From Octopus vulgaris (lineage: Eukaryota), in the NCBI GenBank assembly GCA_951406725.2, contig OX597828.1, positions 28,892,001 through 28,956,000 on the forward strand: a stretch of DNA of 64,000 nt, read 5' to 3'. The position numbers and the translations under genes were made by a program. A model generated the notes under the pieces. The model ran no database searches, was not told where the DNA came from, and saw only the letters and a program-made list of their open reading frames with translations. The stretch's first letter is position 1. Each line of letters begins with the position of its first letter. Below are positions 19,850 through 58,794 of this stretch, piece by piece.

Positions 19850-19887
19850 CTGTTACTCTGAGTTTCCCGTTGCCGTTCGTCAGACAG
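19850..19887 (-). ncRNA. Minimal type I hammerhead ribozyme (family H2)
   Basis: Minus strand: CUGU CUGACGA ACG-GCAA-CGG GAAA CUC-A-GAG UA ACAG. Helix I CUGU/ACAG, palindromic helix III ACUC/GAGU, GUA cleavage triplet; followed by AATAAA and (TA)n. Confidence 0.7.
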
Positions 19888-20329
19888 ACGAAAGTAACAA
19901 TTAGGGAAAATCTTAATTATTCTTAGACAACGTTTTAGGAACTGTCTGCCGAGGTTAGAATTTCGTTCTCAATCAATATGGTGCTTGTTTTACGGCCATT
20001 CCACGTTGAAAATCAGTTCTTGTTCGATCACTGGAAGTTAAGCAACGTCAAACCTGGTTAATAAATGTTTATCTCTATTTCATTTGTCGCTGAACCGGAA
20101 TAACACGCCACGCTTAGTTGTGAACAATGACTTGTATCACGGATTTAGCTGTGGTAACATAGGTGGGTGATCAGCCAAATATTCTGCTTGTACACAACAA
20201 CACGCCCTGGTGACCACCCACAATTCTCAGCTACCCAGAATGCACTGACCGTTGCTTGTGCTTACATGACCTGCTGCAAGCAGCGTACTTTTTTTAACGG
20301 TTTTACAAACCCGTACGCATGAATATGGG

Positions 20330-20630
20330 ACTAATGAACAGAAAAAATATGAAAACAGCCGAATCCTAGCAAACGAAGCAAATGGGTGTATTCTCTACAA
20401 GAAAAGGTAGAAATGACCGAGGAAATACGTGACAGTGAAAGGTTCGCTGCTGTAGACCCTGAGTTTGGTGTCAATGAATCTACCATTCATTGCAATAAGA
20501 AGACGCTTGATGCTAACAAACGAAGCAGATGAGTTTTTCTTCACGAAGGTGATGTGTCTTCTCTACAGGAAAAGGTAGATATGATGAAGAAAATACATGA
20601 AGGGAGTTTGGTGTCAAGGAATCTAGATGT
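20330..20630 (+). pseudogene. pogo/Tigger transposase N-terminal HTH (CENP-B/psq) remnant, partly duplicated
   Basis: KRSKWVYSLQEKVEM...AAVDPEFGVNESTIH matches the Tigger-type LxEKV...GVNESTIR pattern; a second partial copy lies at ~20517-20627. Confidence 0.6.
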
Positions 20631-20727
20631 ACTTAAATAGGTGACTTCGTGGGAAACCTTGGTGCTGTGCATTATGTGATATTATTTACATTATTTGTCG
20701 GATATTTGTCCTCATTTCTTTGTTGTT

Positions 20728-20773
20728 AACACAACGTTTCGGCTGATATACCCTCCAGACTTCATCAGGTGTC
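20728..20773 (-). ncRNA. Minimal Penelope-type hammerhead ribozyme (family H1) in a ~130-bp pLTR-like repeat (20682-20812)
   Basis: Minus strand: GACAC CUGAUGA AGUCUG..CAGCC GAAAC GUU GUGUU; same repeat as 58335-58465 and 58720-58870. Confidence 0.75.
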
Positions 20774-20983
20774 TTGGGGGATATTTCGAATCCGGTTCCT
20801 CATTCCTAAGGTTTCCCAGTGTCCACGTGTCTGTGGAATGCTCGGCTAACTTACAAGTTAATTCAGGAGCAGTTAATTCAGTAGATCAAAGAAAGGAATC
20901 CCCATCGTGGGTCTATACGTCGGTTCTTTGGAACGTCTTCTTCCTTGCATTTGTCGTTCCTGCAAGTATTGAAGAGCTACGAC

Positions 20984-21199
20984 TTAACCGTTTAGTATTC
21001 GGATTACTCACTCAAATGCAATGCGCATCTATTGTTTTGAATTATTCATGGATTATCTCACAGTTTTGAGATTTCGATGGTGCGATTGTTTATTTTTAGA
21101 ACGGGAAGGTATGAAAAGCCGGATCCAAACCTGTTTGAACATAAAACAGGCAGAATATTTGGGTCAGGCATGGTCAGTTTAAATGCTAAAAAGTGTTAA
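20984..21199. mobile_element. Degenerate piggyBac-like MITE
   Basis: TTAA-CCGTTTAGTATT ... AATGCTAAAAAGTG-TTAA: TTAA at both ends with decayed inverted termini. Confidence 0.45.
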
Positions 21200-56196: not shown

Positions 56197-57596
56197 CAGG
56201 GTGTTCCAAAAGAAACAGTGCACTGAACATTTTCATAGGTATACATAAAGAAACAGTGCACTGAACACAAGAAAGGATATTTATAGTTGAAAATGTTTTC
56301 CCAAAAGATTTTAAATATTATATTTAGATAATTTAGATATCTAAATTTTAGATATTTATATTAAATATTCTTTTGTTTCAGGGACCCTTTGAAAATGGTG
56401 CTTACCTTACAAGAAAGGATATTTATTGTTGAAAATGTTTTCCGAGATGGTGGCAAATACACAAAAGAAGTGCAAGAGTCATTTCAAGAAAAATTTGGTG
56501 CAGAACGTTTGCCGCATCGAAATTGTGTTTCCGCTTTGTTGCATAAGTTCAAAAAAACTGGAAGTGTTCAAGACAAACCCAAAAGTGGCCGCCCAAAAGT
56601 CGTTACAGATACAGTCTTACAGAATGTTACCAACAAACTGCAGAGGAGCCCACGAAAGTCTTTGAGGCGTTTGTCTCAAGAAACTAGGATATCTCTAACA
56701 TCAACTCACCGAGCAGTGCATCAACTTAAATTCTTTCCAAATAAAGTGCATGTTGTTCATGAACTGAAGCCTCAGGATTCAGAAAAACGCGTACTCTTCT
56801 GTCGGTGGTTTGAAAATTTTATTCTAGAGAAAGGTGAAAACATTTTAAACCATACATTCTTCAGTGATGAAGCATGGTTCCATTTGTCCGGGTACATGAA
56901 CAGTCAGAACTCTAGAGTGTGGTCTACAATAAATCCTCATGCTCTGTTTCAGAAACCACTCCACGATCAAAAAGTTGGTGTTTGGTGTGCTTTGTCAAGG
57001 CGGCGTATAATTGGACCTATATTTTTTGAAAACACCATCACATCTGAGTGTTACATTCATAACATCCTGGAGCCATTTTTTGATCAACTGACGGAGCAAG
57101 AAAAGCAACAAGGCTGGTTCCAGCAAGATGGTGCAACTGCACATACGGCTCGTGTCAGTATGGCTGCAGTTGGTGATGTCTTTGGGGATCGTGTGATCTC
57201 TCGTGGTTTGTGGCCACCTCGATCACCGGATTTAACACCTCCTGACTTTTATTTGTGGGGCAAATTGAAAGACTCAGTGTATGCAGACAATCCTCGAACT
57301 ACGGATGAACTGAAGCAGAAAATAACAAGTGTTATTCAAAACATCAAACCTGATGAACTTGAGTGTGTTTTTCAAAACACGCAGCGTCGCGCTCGTTTAT
57401 GTCTGCAGGTGAATGGCGCACACTTTCAACAGTTATTGTAGATCATATCTTACTGCACGAGTCAATCCTCAATCGTACTTTAGTTGATAAGGTATTGAAT
57501 TTGTGAATATTTGCAATAAATAGTATTTTTCTGTGAGTTTTGTTTCTTTGGGTTATTAGCATATTCCTACTGCACTGTTTCTTTTGGAACACCCTG
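56197..57596 (+). mobile_element. Intact Tc1/mariner-superfamily transposon, 1400 bp
   Basis: Perfect 26-bp TIRs CAGGGTGTTCCAAAAGAAACAGTGCA (56197-56222 / 57571-57596), TA on both sides, single uninterrupted ORF. Confidence 0.96.
56395..57441 (+). CDS. Transposase, 348 aa, DD38D triad, rosa/Visitor (DD41D)-like motifs
   Basis: ATG at 56395; N-terminal HTH (KFKKTGSVQDKPKSGRP, SPRKSLRRLSQE); FSDEAWFHLSG, FQQDGATAH, WPPRSPDLTPPDFYLWGKLK; 38 residues between D2 and D3. Confidence 0.95.
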   Translation: MVLTLQERIFIVENVFRDGGKYTKEVQESFQEKFGAERLPHRNCVSALLHKFKKTGSVQDKPKSGRPKVVTDTVLQNVTNKLQRSPRKSLRRLSQETRISLTSTHRAVHQLKFFPNKVHVVHELKPQDSEKRVLFCRWFENFILEKGENILNHTFFSDEAWFHLSGYMNSQNSRVWSTINPHALFQKPLHDQKVGVWCALSRRRIIGPIFFENTITSECYIHNILEPFFDQLTEQEKQQGWFQQDGATAHTARVSMAAVGDVFGDRVISRGLWPPRSPDLTPPDFYLWGKLKDSVYADNPRTTDELKQKITSVIQNIKPDELECVFQNTQRRARLCLQVNGAHFQQLL

Positions 57597-57603
57597 TATA
57601 TAT

Positions 57604-58170
57604 ATACAAAATGGGACAAGAACGCAAGACATCCGGACAAGTAGGTGATACAAAATGGGACAACAAAACATCCAGAAAGACAATACAAAGAAAATAAGGA
57701 CGGGTCATTCGAGGTTTGCTTTCTTCAGTCAAGCACCAGATTATCCTTGCAATTTCGGCTGATTATTCTTGAGATTGCTCCAATCTAGCCAGCCCCAAAG
57801 AAAATCTAAGCTAGGAGCGTAGATTCCTTGGAAGAACGCAGCGAATGTATACAAAAACAAGGACGGAAAAAACGAACAATGTATAAATACAATAAAGAAT
57901 ACAATAAAAATAATAACTGGACATAACAACAGGACTCTTTCGACTAAGAACGAATTGAATTAGGCTGGCGCGTGTAGAAATGAAACCTTACGGTAGAGAT
58001 ACAAAAATTTTACAAACACATGGAAGAATATCGATGTTGCACGGACAACGGTCAGACCAAGAAAAAAAGAGGAGGCCTGGCCGAACGGTCACGTCGAAAC
58101 AGAAGAATTAAGGAGGGGCGAGAAAAAAATGAGAGAAACACAGTGAAGTGAAAAGTAGAGGGAAAGTCAG
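57604..58170. repeat. Interspersed repeat family E, longer copy (possibly Penelope pLTR-derived)
   Basis: First ~150 bp match 23699-23855; flanked by (TA)n. Confidence 0.65.
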
Positions 58171-58384
58171 TACGTATATATATATATATATATATATATA
58201 TATATACAGATAGCTAGCTAGCTAGCTAGCTAGCTTGATATATACATATACATACCTAATACATTTGATTGTTGTCTACACCACCTGTCTTCGTCTTTTG
58301 TTATTTTGGGGGTATTTGTCCCCTATATATATATTATACATTATTTACATTTGACAGATATTTGTCCTCACCTTGTTTGTTGTT

Positions 58385-58430
58385 AACACAACATTTCGGC
58401 TGATATACCCTCCAGCCTTCTTCAGGTGTT
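58385..58430 (-). ncRNA. Minimal Penelope-type hammerhead (family H1)
   Basis: Minus strand: AACAC CUGAAGA AGGCUG..CAGCC GAAAU GUU GUGUU. Confidence 0.75.
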
Positions 58431-58748
58431 TTGGGGGAAATTTCGAACCTGGGTTCTCATTTTTCTATGTTGTTGTTGTTGTTGTTCTTCTTCTTCTTCT
58501 TCTTCTTCTTCTTCTTCTTCTTATTATTATTATTATTATTATTATTATTATTATTATTATTATTATTATTATTATTATTATTATTATTATTTTTACTACT
58601 ACTACTATTACTACTACTACTACTACTACTACTACTACTACTACTACTACTAACTAATAATAATAATAATAATAATAATAATAATAATAATAATAATAGC
58701 ATCGAAAAATACATTATGAATGACAAACCAGGTTCGAAATTTTCCTAA

Positions 58749-58794
58749 GACACCTGATGAAGGCTGGAGGGTATATCAGCCGAAACGTTGTGTT
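58749..58794 (+). ncRNA. Minimal Penelope-type hammerhead (family H1), intact
   Basis: GACAC CUGAUGA A GGCUG-GAGGGUAUAU-CAGCC GAAAC GUU GUGUU; palindromic AACGUU helix III typical of PLE hammerheads. Confidence 0.85.

Follow-up and report, generated by a model that had tools for sequence, protein, structure and literature searches.

Minimal hammerhead motifs of four repeat families in an Octopus vulgaris contig, one family with a reversed G3-C8 core pair

A 64,000-nt stretch of the Octopus vulgaris genome (assembly GCA_951406725.2, contig OX597828.1, positions 28,892,001 to 28,956,000 of the forward strand; referred to here as the window) contains six minimal hammerhead ribozyme motifs belonging to four repeat families, named A to D, with individual sites designated by their first coordinate in the window. 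We interpret the type I motifs of all four families as likely 5'-truncated stubs of the terminal repeats of Penelope-like elements (PLEs), stranded at TA-rich microsatellites, and we predict that family D, in which the core pair C3-G8 has been reversed to G3-C8, is able to cut; judged from sequence features, the probability of this reading as a whole is about 0.72. The other five sites are likely ordinary or decayed Penelope-type minimal hammerheads, although the A6U core at 44610 was seen in one copy. By stating a CUGANGA core for all six motifs, an earlier note on this DNA passed over their most unusual feature, namely, the G3-C8 family.

A reversed core pair in family D

Family D is an abundant dispersed repeat family. 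Public contigs aligning to 54922-55080 came from four runs of four studies with two organism labels (four of 24 runs) and numbered 8459, 5742, 902, and 816, respectively; the depth summed over these contigs is not a copy number, and the RNA nature of one contig run, X13, is a guess only. The window copy has an extra G after A9, a 6-nt palindromic helix III (AAUAUU), U17, and the triplet UUU, with one mismatch in helix I and another in helix II. The latter, at 55027, was repaired in 99.6, 98.7, 99.3, and 100% of the depth in the four runs. The window copy deviates from the majority in loop II. Many contigs are therefore clipped at this point, and the tails left unaligned show the core free of any bias from the window copy. 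Among the 24 loose-end rows listed, beside which stand 359 further rows, 11 start at 55025-55032; one of these (3 contigs) leaves the family, and the other 10 (205 contigs) reach the core. All 10 have C8, and 9 have G3; the helix I repair is likewise found in 9. Given median tail lengths of 11 to 83 nt, only part of the 205 contigs inform on the core.

The majority form of the family consists of a 7-bp helix I, the core GUGAACA, the extra G, a 5-bp helix II starting from G10.1-C11.1, GAA, the palindrome AAUAUU, and U17, and it retains U4, G5, A6, A9, GAA, A15.1-U16.1, and G10.1-C11.1. Because this majority keeps both G3 and C8 and mends both helices, the swap is a family trait rather than a result of decay. 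Family D is very probably a true hammerhead homologue, and we consider it rather likely that its majority form cuts.

The same core change has been made in a Penelope hammerhead from Anolis (Poseidon, PAc), in which cleavage is lost with either C3G or G8C alone and partly regained in the engineered double mutant C3G/G8C (PMC11167929; here and below, published work is cited for the portions of each paper covered). That is a laboratory mutant, whereas family D is natural and present in high copy. The natural U3-A8 variant (PMC3088659; Schistosoma Cercyon, PMC4209133) resembles family D as a compensated change of the tertiary 3-8 pair that is missed by CUGANGA descriptors, but it takes two transitions, while the pair of family D is reversed by two transversions. 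Within the literature searched, we found G3-C8 only as an engineered, partly active mutant, the natural covariation being U3-A8. No natural G3-C8 family was found in full-text searches, the coverage of which stops short of Lunse et al. 2017 (the main survey of variant hammerheads in Penelope elements), Arkhipova et al. 2017, and Przybilski and Hammann 2007, nor was one found in the portions covered of PMC6765202, PMC6155905, PMC10085705, PMC12192606, and PMC13282606. Neither G3-C8 nor U6 occurs in the part examined of the 56-motif alignment of PMC4209133. On balance, we lean toward natural G3-C8 being truly unreported.

Family D might instead be a dead hammerhead, multiplied from an inactive master element since PLEs need no ribozyme. 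Naiad elements thrive without canonical hammerheads, and their authors propose that hammerheads may parasitize these elements (PMC8557442); core mutations had no effect on the insertion of the Anolis element in vitro (PMC11167929), and family D combines two core changes with a G in the extra position, against a consensus of H. Nevertheless, the two changes are exactly complementary and all other core bases are kept, both helices of the majority form (7 and 5 bp) are perfectly paired, its palindrome is likewise perfect, and neutral decay would not be expected to strike one pair only and restore its pairing. A dead family D therefore seems unlikely to us.

Several observations do count against a working G3-C8 hammerhead. 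One core-reaching row (8 contigs) has U at position 3, and the table of contig differences is blank at the core, which is weak evidence, as the helix I change at 55054 also escaped it. As a monomer, the window copy of 55009 misfolds. The extra-position G and the UUU triplet may both reduce the activity of family D. The published minimal motifs were inactive as monomers and weak as dimers (PMC4209133), and in Anolis insertion in vitro was independent of cleavage, with no RNA ends at the site (PMC11167929).

Six minimal motifs in the window

The window has a GC content of 35.6% and is dense in microsatellites, SINE (short interspersed nuclear element)-like repeats, and transposon fragments, with simple repeats making up 11.9% of its length. 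Sequence inspection located all six motifs at the positions and on the strands proposed for them, and their division into four families was confirmed, with three copies of family B and a single motif each for families A, C, and D (Table 1).

TABLE 1 Hammerhead motifs, related repeats, and the Penelope-like fragment in the window
Feature	Coordinates	Strand	Predicted cut	Distance to downstream TA/TATG tract (nt)	Description
Broken Penelope-like open reading frame	8459..9380	+			C-terminal GIY-YIG endonuclease; frameshifts and stops
Family A minimal hammerhead	19850..19887	-	after 19854	33	Core CUGACGA; helix I 4/4; helix II broken in the window copy; helix III ACUC-A-GAGU; A17
Family B minimal hammerhead	20728..20773	-	after 20733	911 (nearest TA tract)	One helix II mismatch; U17; family B match spans 20668-20812
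Family C minimal hammerhead	44610..44647	+	after 44642	97	Core CUGUCGA (A6U); helix I 5/5; helix II 4/4; A17
Family D element stub	54926..55063	-			Abundant dispersed repeat; window copy stops at (TA)n, 84 nt past the motif
Family D hammerhead	55009..55058	-	between 55016 and 55015	84	Core GUGAACA at 55051-55045; pair C3-G8 reversed to G3-C8
13-bp inverted repeat around a long (TA)n	55064..55194				End of a further repeat joined to the 5' side of the family D stub
Family C 3' fragment without ribozyme	58251..58307	+			86% identity over 58 nt
Family B minimal hammerhead	58385..58430	-		51 (short TA run)	Helix III palindrome altered to AUGU
Family B minimal hammerhead	58749..58794	+	after 58789	87, (TATG)n	Intact; CUGAUGA; extra A; helix II 6 bp (6/6); GAAACGUU; helix I 5 bp (5/5); palindrome ACGU; U17

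The set overall has the layout of GAAA, a short palindromic helix III, and NUH, and an extra base lies between A9 and G10.1, which is A at five sites and G in family D (H in the published consensus). The features that the earlier note had ascribed to every motif hold for most of them. The CUGANGA core is found at 19850, 20728, 58385, and 58749 but not at 44610 or 55009, which we count as variants; in 55009, positions 3 and 8 nevertheless form a Watson-Crick pair. Helices I and II are paired in five of the six, with at most one mismatch per helix, the exception being 19850. Helix III is a perfect palindrome in four, whereas 58385 has one change and 19850 forms only a 4+1+4 near-palindrome. The sole flawless motif of the six is 58749, and decay is evident at 19850, at 58385, and in the window copy of 55009.

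These features correspond to the minimal hammerheads described from metazoan PLEs (PMC4209133), which are of type I with a helix I of 4 to 7 bp, an extra base after A9, G10.1-C11.1, a palindromic helix III, and U17 or A17, and which occur as several families per genome, mostly in single dispersed copies. Their consensus is CUGANGAH-G...C-GAAA-N-palindrome-NUH; U17 is common among them, and those of the Drosophila type have a palindrome of 6 nt. The Penelope-type assignment proposed earlier is supported by the extra base, G10.1-C11.1, the palindromic helix III, U17, and pairs on opposite strands. The differences are the G3-C8 pair and extra G of family D, the U6 of 44610, and the location within Penelope terminal repeats, which we infer here. 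For position 6, a natural A6C hammerhead variant has been reported, with A6U not mentioned in the portions covered (PMC7151607).

A rival reading would make the motifs, or those at 44610 and 55009 at the least, accidental resemblances within AT-rich repeats, with their link to microsatellites a matter of background density. The A6U core is known from a single copy, simple repeats are plentiful in the window, and an Rfam search of 58690-58850, around the best copy (58749), gave no hammerhead match at an E value of ≤10; a scan of the whole window gave no hammerhead family among the 150 matches listed, nearly all of which were microRNA models on microsatellites and beside which stand 287 further matches. 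The folding energies of the monomers, which tell against our reading, were no better than those of shuffled sequences (z scores from +0.81 to -1.66). Both outcomes are to be expected of motifs with almost no helix III, and the fold scores are uninformative for minimal motifs. A structural hammerhead descriptor was run in strict and relaxed versions, with 30 local dinucleotide shuffles and the reversed sequence as controls. In its strict form it gave two matches in the window and none in each of the 30 shuffles; the relaxed versions gave four matches, against a shuffle mean of 0.37 or 0.23 (maximum, 2) and one or no match in the reversed sequence. This check, confined to the window, recovers four sites above the shuffles and misses the decayed sites 19850 and 58385. 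Moreover, both helices of 55009 are better paired in the family majority, and in viral contigs (7 of 64 parts) none of 121 matches to the G3-C8 core pattern had both helices of at least 4 bp, a control that serves as a chance estimate only and is blind to phage hammerheads with a long helix III. With the microsatellite background at only 10 to 15% (see below), coincidence is largely refuted for families B and D, and for the set it is very improbable.

Searches for further copies of families C and D yielded nothing usable. Translated-frame searches and a pattern scan of JGI metagenomes yielded no family C relatives (two matches were weak, long, and unrelated looking), translated-frame searches for further family D copies gave nothing usable, and the JGI pattern scans returned 0 matches for family D and 0 for family C, the host being probably absent from those data.

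Microsatellites and the Penelope connection

As the earlier note had claimed, a TA or TATG tract lies close downstream of five of the six motifs, the exception being 20728. A tract of this kind lies within 110 nt of 10.6 to 14.8% of randomly chosen non-repeat positions (observed, 5/6; binomial P = 7e-5 to 4e-4), and for (TA)5 alone the background is 9.8% (observed, 4/6; P = 1.2e-3), four definitions having been compared in all. The cutoffs were picked after seeing the data and three of the sites belong to one family, which makes the P values optimistic; the adjacency in the window is real but overstated by them. A preference for (TA)n has been published for Naiad and proposed for Neptune elements (PMC8557442).

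For family D as a whole, a direct TA junction as the rule is not borne out by the contig ends, and this is a point against placing its stubs at TA-rich tracts: among the 3' loose ends listed, 296 contigs run into a shared extension (approximately 14 nt, then diverging) and 31 into AT/TA-rich sequence. Assemblies of short reads undercount joins to (TA)n, and the approximately 14-nt extension fits the optional tail of Penelope insertions. Neptune and Naiad elements (Craig 2021, PMC8557442) show insertion beside TA microsatellites, an optional tail, and inverted partial copies, but Naiads are without canonical hammerheads. The supplement of PMC8557442 includes two consensus sequences of octopus Naiads, and exact-word searches of it detected no word of family C or D, although line breaks may hide matches.

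A further difficulty for a Penelope origin is that none of families A to D is joined to an open reading frame (ORF) for reverse transcriptase or endonuclease in the window, so that the origin rests on anatomy. Indirect signs are the TA ends, the tail-like extension, and the inverted pieces, the last two of which, like the (TA)n preference, have been described for PLEs (PMC8557442). Single dispersed copies and opposite-strand pairs 100 to 700 bp apart have been ascribed to truncated elements (PMC4209133), and 58385 and 58749 form such an inverted pair of family B copies about 320 bp apart, with a trinucleotide microsatellite between them. A GIY-YIG Penelope fragment is also present in the window. 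Its nuclease domain was recognized by Pfam PF01541 (E value of 1.1e-4; 22.9 bits against a cutoff of 22.6), and the degenerate cysteine linker preceding it looks Neptune-like when judged by eye. The fragment is cut at a TA by a decayed mariner-like insertion (~9381-10619) and continues at ~10621-10690; a search found no full-length relatives of it. The idea that this element mobilizes the ribozyme families finds no backing in sequence, as the fragment at 8459-9380 shares none with families A to D.

The earlier note had also described the families as non-autonomous retroelements and set them beside retrozymes. Animal non-LTR (long terminal repeat) retrozymes (PMC7229834; bioRxiv 10.64898/2026.07.22.740005) are comparable in being short non-coding repeats with type I hammerheads, kin to Penelope terminal repeats, but they form tandem arrays of 150 to 450 bp with canonical hammerheads and circular RNAs, whereas the motifs in the window are minimal and dispersed. 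None of the 229 Tandem Repeats Finder rows overlaps any of the six sites, and, with no tandem array at any site and all six motifs minimal rather than canonical type I, membership in the non-LTR retrozymes was rejected, as was the term retrozyme in its defined sense.

There is more to be said for the wider form of the idea, in which the four families would be true non-autonomous ribozyme retroelements, with ends of their own or retrozyme-like, moved in trans by Penelope proteins. Non-autonomous Penelope derivatives are in print (bioRxiv 10.64898/2026.07.22.740005; PMC8557442), the units are short with sharp 3' ends at microsatellites, and family D is abundant as a short sequence. In family B, the copies share 84 to 92% identity over 125 to 152 nt, and two of the three start at similar places beside trinucleotide tracts. 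The third copy, however, extends further 5' than the other two, there is neither a tandem array at any site nor a link to the local ORF, and Penelope insertions are usually truncated at the 5' end (PMC4209133; PMC8557442); within the window, truncated terminal-repeat stubs and distinct units look alike. Distinct non-autonomous elements are a minority option, somewhat less improbable than a dead family D, and we prefer truncated Penelope stubs.

Both inverted copies of family B border, at their 5' ends (58461-58711), on trinucleotide tracts (TTC/TTA/CTA/TAA) rather than on TA, and this family may have a 5' association with (TAA)n. In one contig of run X13, family D continues 5' behind 55067 into a word that resembles the branch point and acceptor of an intron, and a closely similar word stands ahead of the family A motif, at 19891-19904 (-). 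An intron end at helix I has been described for the Drosophila Penelope (PMC4209133).

If the motifs are terminal-repeat stubs, the ribozyme would have acted in a tandem parent element, where two copies could pair via the palindromic helix III and each paired core would cut after position 17. Read-through transcripts would in this way be cut down to unit RNAs, a process that is probably slow and assisted by the protein of the element, on which the Anolis Penelope hammerhead depends (PMC11167929). The single genomic stubs have no same-family, same-strand partner nearby, and most of them would be inert.

Neighboring repeats and significance of family D

Two further hammerhead candidates were rejected. 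A fifth TA-flanked family (57595-58176 and 23695-23855, both on the minus strand; 85% identity over 162 nt) has the word CUGA(A/G)GA with GAAA upstream of it, but no hammerhead helices could be fitted. Downstream of the Penelope fragment, 11148-11180 (+) has CUGAUGA and a possible 5-bp stem, but its helices are unconvincing; it is perhaps a very decayed hammerhead remnant. Another repeat (10695-11070) follows the continuation of the Penelope ORF. Between TA runs at 56188-57605 (+) lies a Tc1/mariner-type transposon with identical 35-bp terminal inverted repeats and an uninterrupted ORF of 358 amino acids (56365-57441; Pfam DUF4817, HTH_32). It looks young and may explain the words common to the window and to metagenome RNA runs of other invertebrates. 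Two ORF tails beside (TAA)n, at 40775-41065 and 41260-41649 (+), had no relevant Pfam match, and we take them to resemble the C terminus of restriction-like-endonuclease non-LTR elements. The remaining repeats include a SINE-like one, with partial tandems of 184 bp at 7232-7901 (3.6 copies) and 41983-42294 and many dispersed copies in the window, and a 33/67-bp minisatellite array of about 28 units at 15390-16332.

Since 2014, a repeat-rich genome has been expected to hold several minimal hammerheads next to microsatellites, and it is family D that goes beyond this. The C3-G8 pair was earlier inferred from crystal structures and rescue mutants. A high-copy reversal of this pair, by two changes that are individually inactivating and with the rest of the core kept, is comparative evidence of selection on cleavage or on the active fold, and it bears on the question of whether the ribozymes of PLEs matter for transposition. 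It is possible, though somewhat less likely than not, that a Penelope-type element with a working G3-C8 hammerhead has multiplied in an animal genome to at least thousands of copies. This would bring the natural forms of the 3-8 pair to three and be the first in an animal, with a family that perhaps uses U6 next to it. If so, such families would be invisible to CUGANGA descriptors, the ribozyme counts of animal genomes would be too low, and some Penelope lineages reported as hammerhead free may carry hammerheads with a swapped core. A simple remedy for genome searches would be to permit any Watson-Crick pair at positions 3 and 8.

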